In this document: positions 4,042-36,799 of the stretch, piece by piece
How positions within the stretch are numbered: position 1 is the first letter of the stretch
Layout of the letters: every line of letters starts with the position of its first letter
NCBI GenBank assembly: GCA_009780435.1
Contig: WRAB01000002.1
Location: forward strand, 62,420-126,419
From: Oscillospiraceae bacterium
GTDB taxonomy: Bacteria; Bacillota; Clostridia; Oscillospirales; Oscillospiraceae
Direction: 5' to 3'
DNA length: 64,000 bases
The notes under the pieces: generated by a model
Told to the model about the DNA's origin: nothing
Databases searched by the model: none
Seen by the model: only the letters and a program-made list of their open reading frames with translations
Made by a program: the position numbers and the translations under genes

Positions 4042-5352
4042 CTAAAATTGCGGTAAATAGGCTCTGTGCGCTTCTAATAGCGCATCAAACACTTGGTTGG
4101 CAAGGGCATCGCTGGGACAGAGCGGGTTCATGTTCAAAGCGGCGATGGCCGCCGCCCTGTCCCCCTCTACGGCCGCCTTGACCGCCATGTGCTCAAAGGA
4201 TTTTATCATCTGAATGTAGCCGTTGATCTCTGGTTTTAGCGCACCCAGTGCAATGGCCTTGGGGCCATCTGCCGTTATGACACAGGCCGCCTCTACTACG
4301 CAATCATTTGGCAGATTTGTCACAGTTCCATTGTTTTTAATGTTGACGTACTGTATGTCCCCAGTGTTGTTATAGATGGAGTTGATCAGATTGCAAGCCG
4401 CGTCCGAGTATAGCGCCCCGCCGCGCTGTTCCAACTGCGCGGGCTTGCTGCTCAAACTGTGGTCTTTATAGAGTTCAAATAACGCATCTTCCGTTTTCTT
4501 TACGACCTCACCGCGGACCTCGTTGTTTTCATACTCCTTGTTCTGTTTGACCAGTTGATCCTGGGTATGGAAATAATAGTTATGGTACGGACACGGGATG
4601 GCGTTCAGCCCTTTGATCAGGTCGGCGGAATACTCTATACCGTCAATATTGCGCATAGAGGCATTGTCTTTATTGTCAATATAGGCATTTAACACTTGAT
4701 CGAACACAGATGCGCCATCTAAGAAAATATCGGTTGCAAAAATAAAATGGTTGGAGCCTTGGATCTCCATCCGCACTCTGGCGCGATCCACGCCCAACAG
4801 CTTTGCAAACCCGTTTTGCATCCCGATGGGGACATTGCACAGGCCAATTGACTTTTTATAATCGGTATACCGCACAATGGCTTCACTGATCATGCCGGCG
4901 GGATTTGAAAAGTTGAGCATATACGCATCTGGACAAAGTTCTTGTATATCTTTTACGATGTCCAGTATCACAGGGATTGTGCGAAAACCCTTAAACATAC
5001 CCCCGGCACCGTTGGTCTCCTGACCGATCATGCCGTTGGCAATAGAGATTCGCTCGTCTTTGATCCGGGCCTCTAACAGACCGACCCGCATCTGGGTTGT
5101 CACAAAATCTGCACCCTCCAGCGCTTCCCGCCGATTTAAGGTGGGAATAATCTGCAAAGGCAGACCCGCCTTTTCTACCATCCTCTGCGCCAGGGCGCTT
5201 ACGGTTTTAAGCTTTTCACGGCCCTCTTCAATATCTACGAGCCATAATTCCTTCACGGGCAATTTTTCGTAGCCGCGGATAAAGCCCTCCACCAGTTCTG
5301 GTGTATAACTGCTTCCGCCGCCTATGGTTGCAATTTTTAGATTCTTGTTCAA
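4042..5352 (-). CDS. Glycoside hydrolase family 4, 6-phospho-beta-glucosidase (CelF/ChbF-like)
   Basis: The N-terminus KIATIGGGSSYTPELVEGF... and the motif GQETNGAGGMFKGFRTIPV closely resemble E. coli ChbF as I recall it. The track start at 5370 contains the RBS GAGGAGG itself, so TTG at 5352 (MNKNLKIATIGGG) is preferred. Confidence 0.85.
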   Translation of the reverse strand: MNKNLKIATIGGGSSYTPELVEGFIRGYEKLPVKELWLVDIEEGREKLKTVSALAQRMVEKAGLPLQIIPTLNRREALEGADFVTTQMRVGLLEARIKDERISIANGMIGQETNGAGGMFKGFRTIPVILDIVKDIQELCPDAYMLNFSNPAGMISEAIVRYTDYKKSIGLCNVPIGMQNGFAKLLGVDRARVRMEIQGSNHFIFATDIFLDGASVFDQVLNAYIDNKDNASMRNIDGIEYSADLIKGLNAIPCPYHNYYFHTQDQLVKQNKEYENNEVRGEVVKKTEDALFELYKDHSLSSKPAQLEQRGGALYSDAACNLINSIYNNTGDIQYVNIKNNGTVTNLPNDCVVEAACVITADGPKAIALGALKPEINGYIQMIKSFEHMAVKAAVEGDRAAAIAALNMNPLCPSDALANQVFDALLEAHRAYLPQF

Positions 5353-5420
5353 TTTGTAGCCCCTCCTCAAAATGAAAGCAAATAGTTTATATCGCTATAG
5401 GCCCACTGCGCGTGAGCCTT

Positions 5421-6473: not shown

Positions 6474-6732
6474 ACGTTTCCTTTGCTATGTAAAATAAAA
6501 TTATTTTAAAATATTTTTTCTTTTATTTCATGTATATTCCGTGTATATTTTATGAAATCATTTTTTTATACGGAAGTAGACTTTTTCTATAATTAAATTA
6601 TTTTAAAATATACTCAAAATTATACGCGGCAGATAGTATCATGTCAAGGTGTCGTGTTTAACAAATTTATGAGAGATAAACTGTGAAATGTGAACAAGGG
6701 ACAACGTTATGTCGGGCGTTATCATACGTTTC

Positions 6733-30143: not shown

Positions 30144-30172
30144 TTGACAAAAGGCGTAAAACACACTATAAT
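30144..30172 (+). promoter_or_regulatory. Consensus sigma-A promoter of the tRNA pair
   Basis: TTGACA (30144-30149), a 17-nt spacer, then TATAAT (30167-30172). Confidence 0.8.
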
Positions 30173-30263: not shown

Positions 30264-30340
30264 GGGCCTTTAGCTCAGTTGGTTAGAGCATCCGGCTCAT
30301 AACCGGACGGTCCTGGGTTCAAGTCCCCGAAGGCCCACCA
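30264..30340 (+). tRNA. tRNA with a CAU anticodon (elongator Met, or lysidine-dependent Ile2; the GGGCC/GGCCC acceptor stem looks Ile-like)
   Basis: 77 nt. Features are GGGCCTTTAGCTCAGTTGGTTAGAGC..., an anticodon loop CTCATAA, GGTTCAAGTCC, and an encoded CCA. Confidence 0.9.
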
Positions 30341-30343
30341 GAT

Positions 30344-30419
30344 AGGGGTATAGCTCAGTTGGTAGAGCAGCGGTCTCCAAAACCGCGTGCCGAGGGTTCA
30401 AGTCCTTCTGCCCCTGCCA
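30344..30419 (+). tRNA. tRNA-Trp (CCA anticodon)
   Basis: 76 nt. Features are AGGGGTATAGCTCAGTTGGTAGAGC..., an anticodon loop CTCCAAA, a T-arm GGTTCAAGTCC, and an encoded CCA. Confidence 0.92.
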
Positions 30420-30424
30420 AAAAT

Positions 30425-30462
30425 CCCGCAATCCTTGTAGTTTCAATGGGTTGCGGGTTTTG
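30425..30462 (+). terminator. Terminator after the tRNA pair
   Basis: Stem cccgcaa / ttgcggg followed by TTTTGCTTT. Confidence 0.6.
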
Positions 30463-30667
30463 CTTTCCCACCGTGTACGAATTATGTACGAATGAGTTTT
30501 CAGAACCTCTAGTCGATGCCTCTAAAAATAACAAATGATGACCATACTTTTTGTAGTGTGGTCATCATTTGTTTATGCGATTGTGTTCAAAATATCAACC
30601 GCGTTTTCTTCCTCTCGTGAATACAAGTGGCTGTATGTATTCCATGTTTCACTCGTACCATATTTAA

Positions 30668-30706
30668 CGAATATGACATGCTATTGTCACATTCGTGTGG
30701 TATACT
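30668..30706 (+). promoter_or_regulatory. Operator copy 1 plus the -10 box, upstream of the WYL regulator gene
   Basis: cgAATATGACA-tgctat-TGTCACATTcg forms 11-bp arms with 1 mismatch. TGgTATACT follows at 30698-30706. Confidence 0.65.
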
Positions 30707-30723
30707 AGTTCTGGGTGATAACA

Positions 30724-31626
30724 ATGCAAACAAGCCGATTATTTGAAATCATATATCTGCTTCTAAACAAAGACCGTGTAACCGCAAGGGAGCTGGCGGA
30801 GCGTTTTGGCGTTTCCACACGGACAATTTACCGAGACATTGACACAATCAGTTTGGCGGGAATCCCTGTTTACACAGAAAAAGGAAAGGGCGGCGGCATC
30901 AGCTTATTGCCTGATTTTGTGCTGAATAAATCTATTTTAAGCGAAGAGGAGCAGAGCGAGATACTTGCCTCTTTGCAAGGGCTTACACAAATTCAATCCG
31001 CCGATGCTGACCATGTTTTGCAGAAACTATCTACCGTATTCAATAAGACTGCCGTCAAATGGCTGGAGGTGGATTTTTCTGACTGGAGTTTCCATAGGCA
31101 AGATATTTGGGGCGGGTTCAAATCTGCCATTTTGCAAATGCGAATTGTGGAGTTTGACTATTACAGCTCCTATAGCGAAAAAACCCGCCGCCGTGTCGAG
31201 CCGATTCAGCTTTGGTTTAAGTCAAGGGCTTGGTACTTGAAAGCCTACGATCTAACCAAGCGTGACATTAGATTATTTCGACTAAGCCGTGTGCAAAATA
31301 TGAATGTGACTGATAAAACTTTTGCCGAACGAAATCTGCTCATGGAGGAAACAATCAGCTCGCCATCAACGAAGCAAAAGCCTGATGTTACATTGAGGCT
31401 TCGGATCAAATCGGAAATGGCGCACAGGGTACTTGATGAGTTCGCAAGCGTAGTCGAGAAGCAAGAAGCAGACGGCAGCTATATTGTCTCACTCTGTTGG
31501 CCGGAGGATCATTGGGTTTATGGCACAATACTCTCTTTCGGAGAATATATCGAAGTCCTTGGGCCGAAGCATATCCGAGAGATCATTCGGGATAAGGCAA
31601 AGAAAATTTACGAACAATATTCATAA
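30724..31626 (+). CDS. WYL-domain transcriptional regulator (YafY/PafBC/CapW/BrxR-like: wHTH, WYL and a C-terminal extension)
   Basis: The HTH is MQTSRLFEIIYLLLNKDRVTARELAERFGVSTRTIYRDIDTISLAGIPV. The WYL core is RRRVEPIQLWFKSRAWYLKAYD...RLFRLSRV. Confidence 0.85.
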   Translation: MQTSRLFEIIYLLLNKDRVTARELAERFGVSTRTIYRDIDTISLAGIPVYTEKGKGGGISLLPDFVLNKSILSEEEQSEILASLQGLTQIQSADADHVLQKLSTVFNKTAVKWLEVDFSDWSFHRQDIWGGFKSAILQMRIVEFDYYSSYSEKTRRRVEPIQLWFKSRAWYLKAYDLTKRDIRLFRLSRVQNMNVTDKTFAERNLLMEETISSPSTKQKPDVTLRLRIKSEMAHRVLDEFASVVEKQEADGSYIVSLCWPEDHWVYGTILSFGEYIEVLGPKHIREIIRDKAKKIYEQYS

Positions 31627-31662
31627 TATGACACAGCGTTGTCGTATTTAGCGTGATACGCT
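31625..31662 (+). promoter_or_regulatory. Operator copy 2 plus a TAnnnT box, upstream of the Fpg/Nei-like gene
   Basis: AATATGACA-cagcgt-TGTCGTATT (31625-31648), then TACGCT at 31657-31662. It overlaps the stop codon of the WYL gene. Confidence 0.6.
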
Positions 31663-31690
31663 TAAGAGAAACGATAAAAGGAGTTCTAAT

Positions 31691-32521
31691 ATGCTTGAAA
31701 TACCGGAAGCCATTGTAATATCCCGGCAGCTGGATCAAACTGTAAAAGAGAAACGTATCAAAGAAGTCGTCACGGCTGCGTCCCCGCATAAATTTGCTTG
31801 GTACTTCGGCGAGCCGTCTGAGTATGACGCGCTCTTATGTGGGCGCACGATTAAGACCGCTTTTTCCTATGGTGGCCGCATTGAAATATTGGCGGAGGGC
31901 GCGGCTTTGCAGTTCGGTGATGGTGTGAATTTGCGATATTATGAAGCCGATGAAAAGTACCCGGCGAAACATCAACTGCTTCTTGTGTTCGACGACGATT
32001 CCGCATTGGCTGCAACGGTGGCAATGTATGGAATGCTATTCGCCTATCCGTCTCACACCAACCTGGACGACGATTTTTACTATACAGCGGCCAAAGAAGC
32101 TGTGTCGCCCTTGTCCGACGGATTTGATTACCCATATTTCCAGACACTCTTTCATGAAAAGGGACTCAAAATGAGCGCGAAAGCGTTCTTGGCCACAGAG
32201 CAACGGATTCCTGGGCTTGGAAACGGTGTTCTACAGGATATTCTGCTGAATGCAAACGTTTATCCAAAGAAAAAGATGGGCAACTTATCAGAAGCGCAAC
32301 GCCAGGGATTATTTTACAGCTTAAAATCCACGCTTGTGGAAATGACCAATGCCGGCGGTCGTGATACCGAGCGGGATTTGTTTGGCAATCCGGGAGGCTA
32401 TAAAACGAAACTAGGCAAAAACAACAAGCTACTTATCTGCCCAAATTGCGGCGGGTCAGTCAAGAAAGAGGCCTATATGGGTGGGAGTATTTACTTTTGC
32501 GAACAATGCCAAGAGAGATGA
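31691..32521 (+). CDS. Fpg/Nei-family (H2TH plus zinc-finger) DNA glycosylase-like protein with a non-canonical N-terminus, MLEIPE
   Basis: The N-terminus MLEIPEA compares with canonical MPELPEV. The H2TH segment is QRIPGLGNGVLQDILLNANVYP. The C-terminal zinc finger is CPNCGG...FCEQCQ. An AAAGGAG RBS lies 8 nt upstream of the ATG. Confidence 0.8.
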   Translation: MLEIPEAIVISRQLDQTVKEKRIKEVVTAASPHKFAWYFGEPSEYDALLCGRTIKTAFSYGGRIEILAEGAALQFGDGVNLRYYEADEKYPAKHQLLLVFDDDSALAATVAMYGMLFAYPSHTNLDDDFYYTAAKEAVSPLSDGFDYPYFQTLFHEKGLKMSAKAFLATEQRIPGLGNGVLQDILLNANVYPKKKMGNLSEAQRQGLFYSLKSTLVEMTNAGGRDTERDLFGNPGGYKTKLGKNNKLLICPNCGGSVKKEAYMGGSIYFCEQCQER

Positions 32522-32562
32522 GCGAGAACCTTTCTCTTGGGTTGAAAATTTATAGTAGTTTA

Positions 32563-32600
32563 AATAAGACACACTGTTGTCCTGTTTTCTGTGGTATGAT
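32563..32600 (+). promoter_or_regulatory. Operator copy 3 plus the -10 box, upstream of lhr
   Basis: AATAAGACA-cactgt-TGTCCTGTT (32563-32586), then TGgTATGAT at 32592-32600. The ATG lies 6 nt after the -10. Confidence 0.6.
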
Positions 32601-32606
32601 ATTGTT

Positions 32607-35600
32607 ATGAACACCCCTACCCCTTACAAGAAAATATTCCAAGTGCCAACCAGTTCGTGGTTTGAGCGCACTTTGGGCGCGCCTACCGACGTGCAGCGGG
32701 AGGCTTGGCCTGCCATCGCCTCCGGCAAACATGCGCTCGTCTCTGCACCCACCGGGACGGGCAAGACGCTGTCGGCCTTTTTGGTGTTCATCGACCAAAT
32801 GATGGCCGAGGCGCGCGCAGGCGCTTTAGAGCCGGGGCTACAGGTCGTTTACATTTCGCCCTTAAAGTCCCTCGCCGGGGACATCCGCGAGAACTTATAC
32901 CGCCCCTTGGACGGTATCGCCGGCAAGGACGGTAGCCCGCTCACCATCGCCGTTCGCACGGGGGACACCTCCCCGGCTGAGCGGCAGAAGATGGCGAAAA
33001 AACCGCCGCATATTTTAATCACCACCCCGGAGTCTTTATATTTACTGCTCACCTCCGGTTCGGGCCGGAACATGCTGAAGACCGCAAGGGCTGTGATTGC
33101 AGACGAGTTGCACGCCATGATTGACAGCAAGCGGGGCGCACATTTCATGCTCTCCCTCGCGCGGTTGGATGTTTTATGCGGCCGCCCTTTGCAGCGGGTG
33201 GGCCTCTCCGCCACCATTGAGCCGCTTTCCCTTGCGGCGGATTATTTGTCCAACGGCGACACGCCTGTGGAGATCATTGCACCCGCCATGCACAAGGAGT
33301 TTGAAATCCAAATCGCAAACCCCTTTCCCGGCGGGATTTTGCCGGAGGGTACCATCTGGCCGGAGATTGCCCAGAAAGTAATCGAGGCGTGCCGGGGCGC
33401 CCGAAGTGTCATCGCCTTCACCGAAGGGCGCCTGATGGCAGAACAACTGGCCTACTACGTAAACCAGGCGGAGGGCGAAGGCTTTGCTCGCACCCATCAT
33501 GGCAGCGTGTCGAAAGAGCAGCGTTTTGAGGTGGAACACGACCTCCGGGCCGGACGGCTCCGCCTACTCTGTGCCACCTCTTCCATGGAACTGGGCATTG
33601 ACGTGGGCGAGATTGACCTGGTGTTGCAGGTCGCCTGTCCAAACTCCATCGCCAGCCTCATGCAGCGGCTGGGACGGGCGGGACATAATCCTGGGCGGAC
33701 AAGCCGATTGATTATGTTCCCGCGCATGGTGTCGGAAAACTTGTACTCTGCCCTAACCGCACAAGCGGCCCGGGAGGGTGGCATTGAACAAGCTCGCCCG
33801 CCGCGCCTGTGCCTGGATGTGCTGGCACAGCACTTGGTCTCCATGGCGGCCAGTAGCGCATACACCGTGGATGACGTCATGGCTCTGCTGCCCCATGCAT
33901 ATCCCTTCCGTGGTGTGTCACGTGAGGATGTGTACACTGTTTTGCAGATGCTGGCGGGCGATTATGAACACGAGCGCGACTTGCCCGTACGCCCACGCCT
34001 CTATTATGATCGTATCCACCAGCGCGTGGAGGGCGATGCCTACAGTCGGATGCTCGCCACGTCGGCACCCGGAACCATCCCGGACACGGGTATGTACGCG
34101 GCGAAAACCGAGGGCGGCGTGAAAATCGGCGACTTAGACGAAGAATTTGTCATTGAGCAGCGGGTCGGGTTTAAGTTTCTGCTGGGTTCATTTGCGTGGC
34201 GAATCGCGGCAGTGGATAAGGACACGGTCACTGTGGTGCAATCTTCGCCGGAAGGCGCACGGCCGGCGTGGTGGCGGCACGGGGGCCAGGGGCGCGACAC
34301 CCAGACCGGCCTGATCTTCGGACGGCAGATGCGGCAACTCGCCGAGGCGGCACAGGCCGGAGAACTGCTCTCCAGACTTGAACGCTTAGGACTCGAAGCC
34401 CCCGCCGCCAGAGACACCGCGGACTTTATCGAACGACAGGCGGCGGCCACGGGGATTTTACCCGATGACCGCAACTTGATTGCAGAGCATTTCTGTGACG
34501 AGGTGGGGTTACATCAGGTGATGATCCATTCCATTTATGGACGCCGGGTGAATGCGCCACTGGCCATCTTATTGACGCTCACGGCGAAACACCTGACCGG
34601 CATGGATGTGGATGCCTATGACGATGACGACGGCATTTTACTCATGGCCCGGGGCGAGCGCACCCTGCCGGAGGGCTTGCTCCAAGCGATCCGGCCCGAA
34701 ACGGCCAAGTCTATTTTAGAAGCGGCCCTGCCGGGTACGCCGCTGTTTAACACCAGTTTCCGCCACAACGCCGGGCGTGCGCTGATGATGGGCGTGCGTA
34801 AACATACACGGAACCCCCTTTGGATCCAACGAGTACGGGCCAGCGAGATGATGGACGGCGCCATCCGCCACCCAGATCATCCGCTGATCCGCGAGACAAA
34901 ACGGGAGTGTTTAGAAGACACTTGGGACTTGCCGGGACTGGAACGCTTGCTCTCAGATATGCAATCCGGTACGGTGCAGGTACGCGAACTATATCTGGAC
35001 GATCCCTCGCCCATGTCCCTGCCGCTGCGTCGGCAGGCGGAAGTCGATTTGGTTTATGCCTACACCCCCACCACGGAGAATATCCTCACCGCCGCGGCGG
35101 AGGCCGCCCAGACCGCTGTGAACGAGGCGATCAAACCGAATACCAATCAACTCACACGGGTTTCCCAGCGGCAAAAACTGCCTGAGGACGTGCGGAGTTT
35201 GCACACGACGCTTATGATCGAGGGAGATTTGATCGCCGGAGAATTGCCCGTACCCTTGGAGTGGTTTGAGACCTTAGCCGAGGCGGGGCGCTGTCTTTAC
35301 ATTGAACCCGGGCTGTGGATCGCGGCGGAGCATGAGGCCGTCTACCAAGCCGCTTTGGAAGAGGGCGGGGCGGAAGCACGTCAAACTATGGTGCGGCGCG
35401 CCCTACGCTATCGCGGCGCGATGGATGCCGTAGAACTCGCCAAGCGCTATTTCTGGCCCCGGGAGACGGCACAGGTTGTGCTGGAAGCGCTCTGCGAACA
35501 GGGCAGTGTCATCCTAGACGCAGGCCTATACTACCACGCCGAACTCTACGAGCGCGCTCGCCGTGCCACCATCACGGAGCGGCGGCAGGTGCAGACGGTG

Positions 35601-36740
35601 CCGGCCTCACATTACGCCGCCCTCATGGCGGAACGCGTGCGGACATTTGCGCCAACCGGCGAACAATTGAAGCAGGCCGCCCTAATCCTGGCTGACCGAC
35701 CGGCACCCGCCGATTTTTGGGAGGCGGGCCTGCTCCCCGCCAGAGTAAACGCCTACCGCCCGGAACTTCTTGACAAATTGCTGGCAGAGGGCCAGGTGTT
35801 TTGGCATCTGAACGAGGAAGGCCTTCGTTTTCACGCCCATGCGGACGTGGATTGGGACGCGGACATTGACGCGCTTTTGGCCCAGATCGAGTTGAACCCG
35901 GACGAGGAATTGGTGATGCAGACCTTGCGGCGGCGCGGGGCGTCTTTCCTCTCCGCTTTGTCTGTGGAGCCGCAGACCCAGGGGTCTTTGCAAGATGTGC
36001 TGTTTTCGCTGATGGAAAAGGGCCTCATCTATGCGGACAGCTTCATACCCGTGCGCATGTGGCTTAAGCAGGATAAGGACAAAAAAGCCACCGTCCGCCG
36101 CCGGGTCGCAGCGCGGGTGGCGACCACGAGTTCGGGTCGCTGGGATATTCGGCGGCCCCTTAAGCCGCAAAGCATGGAAGAACGGCTTGATCGCGCTTTT
36201 GAGAAAGTCGGTCTGCTCTGCCGTGAAACCGCCGGCCCTCTCTTGGGTGTCTCCTGGGCGACGGCGCTGGAGGCCTTGCGCGTTTGGGAATATACCGGCC
36301 GCGCACGACGGGGCTATTTTGTAGAGGGTCTGTCCGGTGCGCAATATATCCGCTCCGAGGCCTATGCCGCCACGATCCACGGGCTGGCGCACCCCGCGGA
36401 TGAGATCCTCTGGCTGGCGGCGCCGGACCCAAATCAGGTCTGGGGCAAGGCCCTCGCCCACGAGCCGGGGCGACAGTTCACCATCGTCGCCGGCACCGTG
36501 GTCGCGCTCAAACGCGGTGTGCCCATTGCGGTATTTGAGCGGCAGGGACATACTTTGCGGGTGTTTGACCAGGCCGCACTCCCGGAAGCACTGGCCGCCT
36601 TTGCAACAGATTTTCGCAAACAAACGATCTTCCCAGCTCGAAAGCGGCTGACTGTCAAACAATACCCCGAAGCTACAGCGGAGGTTTTAGCCGCTGCCGG
36701 ATTTAAGCAAGTGATGTTAGACTACGTGCTCTACCGGTAA
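32607..36740 (+). CDS. lhr: Lhr-type large ATP-dependent SF2 helicase (long form with a C-terminal extension)
   Basis: 1377 aa. Helicase motifs present are APTGTGKT, DELH, SAT and QRLGRAGH. The long C-terminal region contains RRGYFVEGLSGAQY, which is typical of Lhr. Confidence 0.9.
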   Translation: MNTPTPYKKIFQVPTSSWFERTLGAPTDVQREAWPAIASGKHALVSAPTGTGKTLSAFLVFIDQMMAEARAGALEPGLQVVYISPLKSLAGDIRENLYRPLDGIAGKDGSPLTIAVRTGDTSPAERQKMAKKPPHILITTPESLYLLLTSGSGRNMLKTARAVIADELHAMIDSKRGAHFMLSLARLDVLCGRPLQRVGLSATIEPLSLAADYLSNGDTPVEIIAPAMHKEFEIQIANPFPGGILPEGTIWPEIAQKVIEACRGARSVIAFTEGRLMAEQLAYYVNQAEGEGFARTHHGSVSKEQRFEVEHDLRAGRLRLLCATSSMELGIDVGEIDLVLQVACPNSIASLMQRLGRAGHNPGRTSRLIMFPRMVSENLYSALTAQAAREGGIEQARPPRLCLDVLAQHLVSMAASSAYTVDDVMALLPHAYPFRGVSREDVYTVLQMLAGDYEHERDLPVRPRLYYDRIHQRVEGDAYSRMLATSAPGTIPDTGMYAAKTEGGVKIGDLDEEFVIEQRVGFKFLLGSFAWRIAAVDKDTVTVVQSSPEGARPAWWRHGGQGRDTQTGLIFGRQMRQLAEAAQAGELLSRLERLGLEAPAARDTADFIERQAAATGILPDDRNLIAEHFCDEVGLHQVMIHSIYGRRVNAPLAILLTLTAKHLTGMDVDAYDDDDGILLMARGERTLPEGLLQAIRPETAKSILEAALPGTPLFNTSFRHNAGRALMMGVRKHTRNPLWIQRVRASEMMDGAIRHPDHPLIRETKRECLEDTWDLPGLERLLSDMQSGTVQVRELYLDDPSPMSLPLRRQAEVDLVYAYTPTTENILTAAAEAAQTAVNEAIKPNTNQLTRVSQRQKLPEDVRSLHTTLMIEGDLIAGELPVPLEWFETLAEAGRCLYIEPGLWIAAEHEAVYQAALEEGGAEARQTMVRRALRYRGAMDAVELAKRYFWPRETAQVVLEALCEQGSVILDAGLYYHAELYERARRATITERRQVQTVPASHYAALMAERVRTFAPTGEQLKQAALILADRPAPADFWEAGLLPARVNAYRPELLDKLLAEGQVFWHLNEEGLRFHAHADVDWDADIDALLAQIELNPDEELVMQTLRRRGASFLSALSVEPQTQGSLQDVLFSLMEKGLIYADSFIPVRMWLKQDKDKKATVRRRVAARVATTSSGRWDIRRPLKPQSMEERLDRAFEKVGLLCRETAGPLLGVSWATALEALRVWEYTGRARRGYFVEGLSGAQYIRSEAYAATIHGLAHPADEILWLAAPDPNQVWGKALAHEPGRQFTIVAGTVVALKRGVPIAVFERQGHTLRVFDQAALPEALAAFATDFRKQTIFPARKRLTVKQYPEATAEVLAAAGFKQVMLDYVLYR

Positions 36741-36760
36741 ATTATGATGATCCCACATGG

Positions 36761-36799
36761 AAACGCTGTCGATTTCTATCGACAGCGTTTTCTTTTTTT
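36761..36799 (+). terminator. Intrinsic terminator of lhr
   Basis: A 13-bp stem, aaacgctgtcgat / atcgacagcgttt, followed by TCTTTTTTT. Confidence 0.85.

Follow-up and report, generated by a model that had tools for sequence, protein, structure and literature searches.

The stretch of DNA considered in this study (the window) comprises 64,000 nucleotides (nt) of contig WRAB01000002.1 from an Oscillospiraceae bacterium (GenBank assembly GCA_009780435.1, positions 62,420 to 126,419). In it the gene for a WYL-domain regulator (WYL1), a gene for a protein resembling the glycosylases Fpg and Nei, and the helicase gene lhr follow one another, each with a palindromic dyad of the core GACA-N6-TGTC in front of it. 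The dyad is a conserved operator, a predicted protein-binding site tied to the WYL regulator, and the cassette that it forms with its promoter is conserved across Clostridia and some Bacilli. The first two sites are most likely cognate to the adjacent WYL1, which would control itself and the Fpg/Nei-like gene; lhr is probably controlled mainly by a paralogous regulator, WYL2, encoded elsewhere, with possible cross-binding by WYL1. The sequence-only reading that preceded this analysis had proposed one operator used three times in a self-contained, WYL-controlled regulon for repair or defence. The operators and their promoter geometry stand, but the single specificity and the self-containment are not supported.

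The dyads are given here without strand, and the promoters and genes are on the plus strand. Operator 1 (30670-30693) reads AATATGACA-tgctat-TGTCACATT and covers the -35 position of the regulator's own promoter; operator 2 (31625-31648), AATATGACA-cagcgt-TGTCGTATT, lies directly after the WYL1 stop codon; both belong to what is called below the WYL1 class. Operator 3 (32563-32586), AATAAGACA-cactgt-TGTCCTGTT, is the native operator of lhr, with a distal half like that of WYL1 sites and a proximal half, AAACAGGACA, of the WYL2 class. Each dyad is followed by an extended -10 element: TG-g-TATACT for WYL1 (30698-30706, hexamer at 30701, 12 nt after TGTC), TG-a-TACGCT with a weak hexamer for the Nei-like gene (31654-31662, hexamer at 31657, 13 nt after TGTC), and TG-g-TATGAT for lhr (32592-32600, hexamer at 32595, 13 nt after TGTC and 6 nt before the ATG). 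The coordinates, dyad sequences and hexamer spacings of the sequence-only reading were thus correct. A scan for consensus -35/-10 pairs called none of the three dyad promoters, which are therefore taken to lack a -35 element.

The recurrence of the dyad is not a matter of chance, as had been argued before. The core GACA-N6-TGTC occurs four times in the window (0.68 expected), a number that none of 100 shuffles reached, and the 24-nt dyad AATATGACA-N6-TGTCATATT with up to three mismatches occurs at the three sites only (0.04 expected). A 26-nt position weight matrix (PWM) built from orthologous WYL loci was also used to scan the window. It scored the three operators at 27.7, 30.8 and 24.1 and found nothing else that reached 8, the best of 20 shuffles being 16.9. 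With the matrices of both operator classes no further site was found in the window, in agreement with the earlier statement that the regions upstream of uvrA, recD2 and dnaE do not have the motif. The fourth copy of the core, at 6700-6713 (GACAACGTTATGTC), was rejected as a chance occurrence: it has no AATAT flanks, its PWM score is below 8, and its -10-like hexamer stands at the wrong offset.

The dyad recurs with the regulator in other genomes. The loci compared were 80 with WYL1 orthologues of 43-85% identity, spanning Oscillospiraceae, Defluviitaleaceae, Lachnospiraceae, Ruminiclostridium, Clostridium, Tepidibacter, Christensenella, and Paenibacillus. An exact search for the core in 1.11 Mb of orthologous loci gave 88 matches where 17 were expected. 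Two positions, fixed with respect to the WYL gene, account for 67 of them: one is 40-100 nt (mostly 47-54) upstream of its start and the other 880-1100 nt (mostly about 900-940) past the start, beyond the stop. With the PWM, an upstream site was found in 42 of the 80 loci (30-120 nt before the WYL start, mostly 47-54) and a site just after the stop in 50, with nine sites elsewhere. The spacing to the promoter is equally regular. Of 120 distinct sites, taken from 160 loci and the window, 115 show TAnnnT at a distance of 12 or 13 nt from TGTC in one or both directions; towards the gene the distance is 12 nt at 43 sites and 13 nt at 68, and the TG extension, an addition to the sequence-only reading, is present in 74 of these 111. 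The earlier placement of the dyad at the -35 position is borne out by these sites, which have the arrangement of a GTC-core operator at a fixed distance from the -10 element of a promoter with no -35 element. The GACA/TGTC core and its flanks are invariant in the orthologous sites, and the central 6 nt are variable, with no compensatory changes.

The second of the two positions is close to the coding sequence. In the window ATATGACA comes immediately after the WYL1 stop codon TAA (31622-31624, the last base A at 31624). In many other loci the stop and the left edge of the operator read ..TAATATGACA, and about 35 loci have the core at +906 from the WYL start. Since the stop abuts or overlaps the downstream operator, the regulator and the cargo promoter make up one compact module with variable cargo behind it. 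Orthologues of WYL1 with 50-61% identity were also seen in metagenome-assembled genomes (MAGs) of other phyla: L027, L043, and L048 (Treponema), L054 (Coriobacteriia), L030 (Bacteroidales), and L044/L050 (Erysipelotrichales/Turicibacter). Four of five such genomes are from termite guts, while the Bacteroidales genome is from another source; their occurrence suggests that the module has been transferred horizontally, or that the bins contain errors.

A second class of operator is found with a paralogous regulator. Locus L085 encodes a protein (1602-2504) that is 34% identical to WYL1 of the window, lies upstream of lhr, and has dyads of the AACAG type at its flanks; this protein, WYL2, represents a large family in the same communities. 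In 11 further WYL2 loci (L164-L174), 12 of 12 distinct flanking operators have the form AACA[CG]GACA-N6-TGTC[GC]TGTT, with the same gap of 12-13 nt to an extended -10 element. The cargo of WYL2 includes AlkZ-related (five loci), HhH-GPD, PC4, PNPOx-like, glyoxalase, and GNAT genes, and thus again points to repair. WYL2 is directly upstream of lhr in two loci, L085 and L099, with the order WYL2 (L099:1-270), AlkZ-related gene, lhr in the latter. The matrix made from the 12 WYL2 sites has limited specificity (a score of 25.6 was obtained in one of 30 shuffles), and for this reason sites were assigned to classes by a half-site log-likelihood ratio (LLR), which separates the 92 WYL1-flanking sites (+1.6 to +22.2) cleanly from the 12 WYL2-flanking sites (-16.2 to -7.7).

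The two specificity classes co-vary with two residues in the recognition helices of the regulators. The helix of WYL1 is V-S-x-R-T-I-Y-R-D, with the serine and the tyrosine in all of 117 sequences, and the helix of WYL2 is V-N-R-R-T-I-G-R-D, with the arginine at 98% and the glycine at 86% in 120 sequences. The two arginines common to both helices match the GACA/TGTC core that both classes share. In WYL1 the helix residues S31, R33, Y36, and R37 are invariant across the family, and by analogy R33 and R37, four residues apart, may be equivalent to R46 and R50 of PafB.

By the same LLR, operators 1 and 2 (+15.2 and +10.3) are clearly WYL1 sites, while operator 3 (-4.6) has a value outside those of all 92 WYL1-flanking sites; its distal half AAATAAGACA contributes +3.4, but its proximal half is a perfect WYL2 half-site at -8.0. 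The proposal of one operator used three times was not sustained on this point. The history of operator 3 was followed in 80 metagenomic loci with Lhr orthologues, 39 of them close (at least 67% identity) and 41 more distant. An operator is located up to 800 nt upstream of lhr in 22 of the 39 close orthologues, mostly of the WYL2 class, and in none of the 41 more distant ones. The earlier reading was to fail if the motif were missing before orthologous lhr and nei genes; it withstands this check, since the motif is present before close lhr orthologues and also before one Nei-like orthologue in another context. The flanks of these lhr operators are mostly AACA[CG]GACA...TGTC[CG]TGTT and not AATATGACA. 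In three loci with 88-93% identity (L081-L083), homology to the window starts exactly at the left edge of the dyad and runs through TGgTATGAT to the ATG 6 nt further on, although the genes further upstream bear no relation to one another (a type I restriction gene in one locus, AraC-type genes in another); operator 3 is thus considered to be part of the native lhr promoter. Because it is an inherited lhr operator, a hybrid with a proximal half of the WYL2 class, the control of lhr is probably to be ascribed mainly to WYL2. Hybrid lhr operators with a WYL1-like distal half and a WYL2-like proximal half are found in the window, L081, L087, and L138. A consistent polarity of such hybrids was considered, but with four against one (L096 is reversed) the cases are too few for the claim. 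A family of open reading frames of about 165 amino acids (MAK[HY]QF[KD]DFL...) is found in three loci between lhr and an operator of the WYL type (L085:2835-3323, L086:3427-3948, L157:355-852); it has no Pfam, NCBIfam, or PADLOC match and is apparently co-operonic with lhr.

Domain searches confirmed the identities that had been given to the three genes. WYL1 (30724-31626) has 300 amino acids and the winged helix-turn-helix (wHTH), WYL, and WCX architecture of the 'YafY family', with Pfam matches to HTH_11 (5e-17), WYL (2e-18), WCX (6e-17), and HTH_PafC (4e-8). It is similar over its full length to PafBC (3e-22) and PafC (4e-15), while similarity to BrxR and CapW is confined to the WYL domain and similarity to DriD to the WYL-WCX part. 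Its residues R186 and R189 (RLFRLSR) align with R201 and R204 of PafC, which along with R211 and R214 of PafB are the arginines that bind single-stranded DNA (ssDNA) (PMC11804915); across the WYL1 family R189 is invariant and position 186 is arginine or lysine. The RWHVR motif is not present in the WYL domain of WYL1, which has SRAWYLK there. No second WYL gene was found in the window.

The Fpg/Nei-like protein (31691-32521, 276 amino acids) has an H2TH domain and a C-terminal zinc finger, and it aligns to Fpg chains of the PDB over residues 2-276; it matches Fpg models over the full length, but with 71 bits where the cut-off is 212. Among 120 homologues the zinc finger (CxxC...CxxC) is kept in 118. 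The family is labelled 'endonuclease VIII' in databases. Its N-terminus is that of neither Fpg nor Nei, in that the nucleophile Pro2 (or Val2 as in NEIL3) is absent while Glu3 is kept (31691-31708). The protein of the window starts with MLEIPE, and 112 of the 120 homologues start with M-[LI]-E-x-P-E (leucine at position 2 in 79, isoleucine in 33), with M-F-E-I-P-E in two; the N-termini of the form M-[L/I]-E-[I/L]-P-E sit behind good ribosome-binding sites. A start of Met-Leu or Met-Ile is not expected to be processed by methionine aminopeptidase. Since Pro2 is absent and the initial methionine should remain, the chemistry of this family probably differs from that of the Fpg/Nei glycosylases.

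Lhr (32607-36740, 1377 amino acids) has the complete architecture of its family, with DEAD, Helicase_C, WH_Lhr, and DEAD_assoc followed by the C-terminal extension of WH3_Lhr and WH4_Lhr; it scores 653 bits with NCBIfam PRK09751, which is under the equivalog cut-off. The -10 hexamer of its promoter ends 6 nt before the ATG (32595-32609) and no Shine-Dalgarno sequence is present, so the mRNA would be leaderless; the same tight layout is kept in the three closest orthologous loci, L081, L082, and L083. The sole strong terminator-like site downstream of operator 1 is an intrinsic terminator on the plus strand at 36759-36792 (15-bp stem and T run). The weaker terminator-like matches all lie within the coding sequence of the Nei-like gene or lhr and have stems of 5-9 bp, at about the frequency expected by chance. 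The terminator scan found none between the three genes, so transcription could run through from one to the next.

The GC content of the segment with the WYL and Nei-like genes (30400-32600) is 42-46%, against 55-63% on both flanks including lhr; by gene, the values are 44.6% for WYL1, 47.9% for the Nei-like gene, and 60.6% for lhr. This discontinuity suggests that the pair of WYL1 and Nei-like genes has a history separate from that of lhr, and the three genes in a row are consistent with, though not proof of, a juxtaposition of two cassettes that evolved apart. A foreign inserted module is suggested by these values but was not adopted as a reading, since WYL1 genes are also somewhat poorer in GC than their flanks in L001. 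The segment of low GC content starts directly after a tRNA-Met/tRNA-Trp pair (30264-30340 and 30344-30419). A perfect consensus promoter, TTGACA-17-TATAAT (30144-30172), drives these two tRNAs, which are the only Rfam matches in the window. The contig is from a metagenome, and its closest relatives are MAGs of Oscillospiraceae, many of which derive from termite-gut metagenomes.

The genes behind the downstream operator of WYL1 differ from locus to locus. A radical-SAM protein of the PA0069/Rv2578c family is found there in 12 loci, GyrI-like/Cass2 proteins in 10, the 3-methyladenine glycosylase Tag in seven, and GNAT-YoaP proteins in seven, and the same Fpg/Nei-like family as in the window lies within 4 kb of the regulator in 14. 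Further cargo includes Zn_ribbon_2, DinB/YfiT-like, VOC/glyoxalase, DJ-1, RidA, and DUF1706 genes, the last of which belong to the ClbS family. GyrI-like proteins hydrolyse cyclopropane genotoxins. With ClbS-like and GyrI-like proteins alongside repair enzymes, the theme of the cargo is DNA repair and genotoxin resistance. Even a WYL1 orthologue with 89% identity has Zn_ribbon_2 cargo instead of a Nei-like gene, and lhr adjoins the WYL1 orthologue in none of the 80 loci; no other genome in the 160 loci examined has a Nei-like gene next to lhr. Targets are also found away from the regulator. A Nei-like orthologue with 87% identity and no adjacent WYL gene keeps a WYL1-type operator at -64 and the -10 element TGaTACGAT (L178/L179). 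Since such targets carry their own operator-promoter cassette away from the WYL gene, the regulon is considered to be dispersed. In three other loci (L175-L177) the operator at -64 before the Nei-like gene is decayed, with the left half AAACACGACA kept, the right half lost, and the -10 TGtGATATGAT retained, and this Nei-like promoter looks like one that has escaped WYL control. With variable cargo, dispersed targets, and lhr adjacent to WYL1 in none of the 80 orthologous loci, the claim of a self-contained regulon is not supported; control by the WYL protein would most likely hold for its own promoter and the Nei-like gene, which carry the cognate class, but much less for lhr, the site of which leans to the WYL2 class.

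The favoured explanation of these observations would be as follows. The operators would be bound by homodimeric wHTH-WYL-WCX factors of the PafBC/DriD/SiwR lineage, within a cassette of a dyad centred near -32, a gap of 12-13 nt, and an extended -10 element with no -35 element. The WYL domain would sense ssDNA that arises after damage, and the dimer, located where region 4 of sigma would be, might recruit or adapt RNA polymerase with sigma-A and so turn transcription on. The output would be a LexA-independent response to DNA damage and genotoxins with variable targets in repair and detoxification. Activation from the -35 position triggered by ssDNA, as for DriD, SiwR, and PafBC, is considered fairly probable.

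Several points weigh against this explanation as a whole, and some of them concern the regulator of lhr. WYL1 may bind operator 3, since its PWM score is within the range of genuine WYL1 sites (about 18-39). The lhr promoters of L157 and L096 are purely of the WYL1 class, the WYL2 class rests on 12 distinct sites only, and no WYL2 gene could be linked to this organism: three contigs of its sample (ERZ27257297) carry WYL2, but their GC content of 41-46%, against 55% for the contig of the window, argues that they come from other organisms. A model in which WYL1 binds all three dyads, so that WYL, Nei-like protein, and Lhr are one self-contained unit, would be in keeping with the invariant core and the same geometry at the three sites, with the score and the AATA of the distal half of operator 3, with the lack of a terminator between the genes, and with the two lhr operators of the WYL1 class just named. 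In L091, moreover, a WYL1 gene with its own operator (5280-5417) follows lhr at a distance of about 1 kb; a Shine-Dalgarno sequence precedes that lhr, and the 151 nt available upstream of it contain no operator. This model is nevertheless rather unlikely, because the LLR and the proximal half of operator 3 set it apart, the site is orthologous to lhr operators in loci where no WYL1 was found up to 4 kb upstream, WYL1 and lhr are not neighbours in the 80 loci, and the GC content breaks between the WYL/Nei-like segment and lhr. A network of two paralogues in which WYL1:WYL2 heterodimers read the hybrid operators is improbable. If it were true, it would be a living intermediate between the homodimers of DriD and SiwR and the obligate heterodimer PafB:PafC, and the TGTC-N12-TAnnnT grammar of sigma adaptation would be ancestral to Gram-positive bacteria.

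The remaining points concern the sign of regulation, which is inferred from geometry and relatedness only. Many of the promoters have a near-consensus extended -10 element (TGnTATAAT). Extended -10 promoters in Firmicutes can fire without a -35 element, so these would suit a repressor. Such a repressor, a dimer bound to the dyad over the -35 and spacer region, would occlude a promoter that is active by itself through the extended -10 element until ssDNA formed after damage releases it, and WYL, Nei-like, and lhr genes would then be derepressed. CapW and BrxR are wHTH-WYL-WCX repressors that leave their palindromes upon binding ssDNA (PMC11662680), the autoregulatory promoters have the TG in about 90% of cases and mostly five or six of six matches to TATAAT, and negatively autoregulated genes typically have an operator on their own promoter. 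A repressor, the main rival reading, is a possible but doubtful alternative, since the full-length affinity of WYL1 is to PafBC and PafC and not to the repressors, it has SRAWYLK in place of their RWHVR motif, and weak hexamers occur in some of the cargo promoters (TACGCT here, TATCCT in Ruminiclostridium); in addition, a spacing held to within 1 nt in 120 promoters, in two paralogous families, and in the PafBC motif of actinobacteria argues for a stereospecific contact with polymerase and not for occlusion. In either case the output would be expression induced by damage. An anti-phage island in which a regulator of the CapW/BrxR type controls an Lhr-like helicase akin to DpdJ or BrxHI is very improbable: the N-terminal half of Lhr does match the PADLOC models for DpdJ (457 bits) and BrxHI (256 bits), and WYL1 the generic WYL models, but the matches are to helicase cores with no partner genes, no other Dpd, BREX, or CBASS components are nearby, Lhr has the complete housekeeping architecture with WH3 and WH4, PADLOC gives no match for the Nei-like protein, and the cargo in more than 80 loci consists of repair and detoxification enzymes. 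The earlier alternative of repair or defence is thus decided for repair. That the dyads are hairpins of a terminator or attenuator, or mere chance repeats, is scarcely credible. Operator 1 folds at -12.3 kcal/mol (z = -3.7) and operator 2 comes directly after a stop codon, but operators 2 and 3 (-8.6 and -4.5 kcal/mol) fold no better than shuffles, no T run follows any site, and conservation is of the sequence itself, with a variable centre and no compensatory changes; chance is ruled out by the core, dyad, and PWM statistics in the window.

Among characterised WYL proteins, PafBC is the best full-length match. It acts on the motif tGTCgg-N10-tAnnnT in promoters with no -35 element, with a contact at -23 to -28 (PMC8635444), so the spacing of 12 nt between TGTC and TAnnnT equals that of the window, and the likeness that had been noticed earlier is real. 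The ssDNA-binding arginines are kept as well (PMC11804915), and lhr of mycobacteria is dependent on PafBC (PMC8682763), a notable parallel to the WYL-class operator on lhr in the window. However, PafBC is an obligate heterodimer of tandem paralogues, or a fusion, and uses an asymmetric single half-site (the -26 element), while there is a single gene and a full palindrome here, with no link to the proteasome or a pup locus.

DriD from Caulobacter crescentus is a homodimer on the pseudo-palindrome ATACGAC-N7-GTCGTAT, which overlaps the missing -35 element at a constant distance to the -10 element; ssDNA activates it, and its damage regulon is independent of SOS (PMC13004042). The operators of the window share the GAC/GTC cores and the position, as known here from sequence; they have GAC-N8-GTC in place of GAC-N7-GTC, the similarity of WYL1 to DriD is weak (E about 1e-3), DriD is alphaproteobacterial with a different regulon, and two paralogous specificity classes have not been described for it. 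SiwR from Mycobacterium smegmatis is a homodimer that binds an imperfect palindrome at -26, between the -35 and -10 elements of the adjacent operon, is induced by genotoxic stress, binds ssDNA, and activates neighbouring DinB-like genes under that stress (PMC10693628). Genes like DinB/YfiT are among the cargo here too, but SiwR has a different motif with a GGA triplet as key element and a divergent or adjacent target only, is confined to fast-growing mycobacteria, and has not been shown to have a dispersed regulon. CapW and BrxR also have wHTH-WYL-WCX architecture, a palindrome of about 20 bp in the promoter of a neighbouring operon, and ssDNA as ligand (PMC11662680). They differ in being repressors with the RWHVR motif that defines them (PMC11662680) and in having CBASS, BREX, or other defence operons as cargo, whereas no such operon adjoins WYL1, the cargo here consists of repair genes, and the similarity is limited to the WYL domain.

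The gene content has its nearest counterpart in mycobacteria, where lhr and nei2 are linked in an operon. There as here, a full-length Lhr is encoded beside a protein of the Fpg/Nei family under a LexA-independent damage regulator of the WYL type, but in the window the order is reversed, with the Nei-like gene first, the genes have separate promoters, and the Pro2 nucleophile is absent. LexA is the textbook damage regulator in Firmicutes. The literature searched describes no damage response governed by a WYL protein in that phylum, nor an operator of this family, nor any connection between a WYL protein and GyrI-like, Tag, or Nei-like cargo. The locus is thus an uncharacterised clostridial relative of the PafBC, DriD, and SiwR damage regulons, conceptually anticipated by them.

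The locus and about 120 orthologous sites supply an operator, a fixed promoter grammar, and two classes with candidate specificity residues. The predicted targets are lhr, the Fpg/Nei-like family that lacks Pro2, Tag, and AlkZ-related, ClbS-like, GyrI-like, and DinB-like genes, and there are cultured carriers in Ruminiclostridium cellobioparum, Paenibacillus motobuensis, Clostridium oceanicum, Tepidibacter mesophilus, and Anaerotaenia torta. The system therefore offers a cross-phylum test of activation by WYL proteins from the -35 position, for which the closest analogues are DriD and SiwR, homodimers that bind palindromes, and not PafBC itself.

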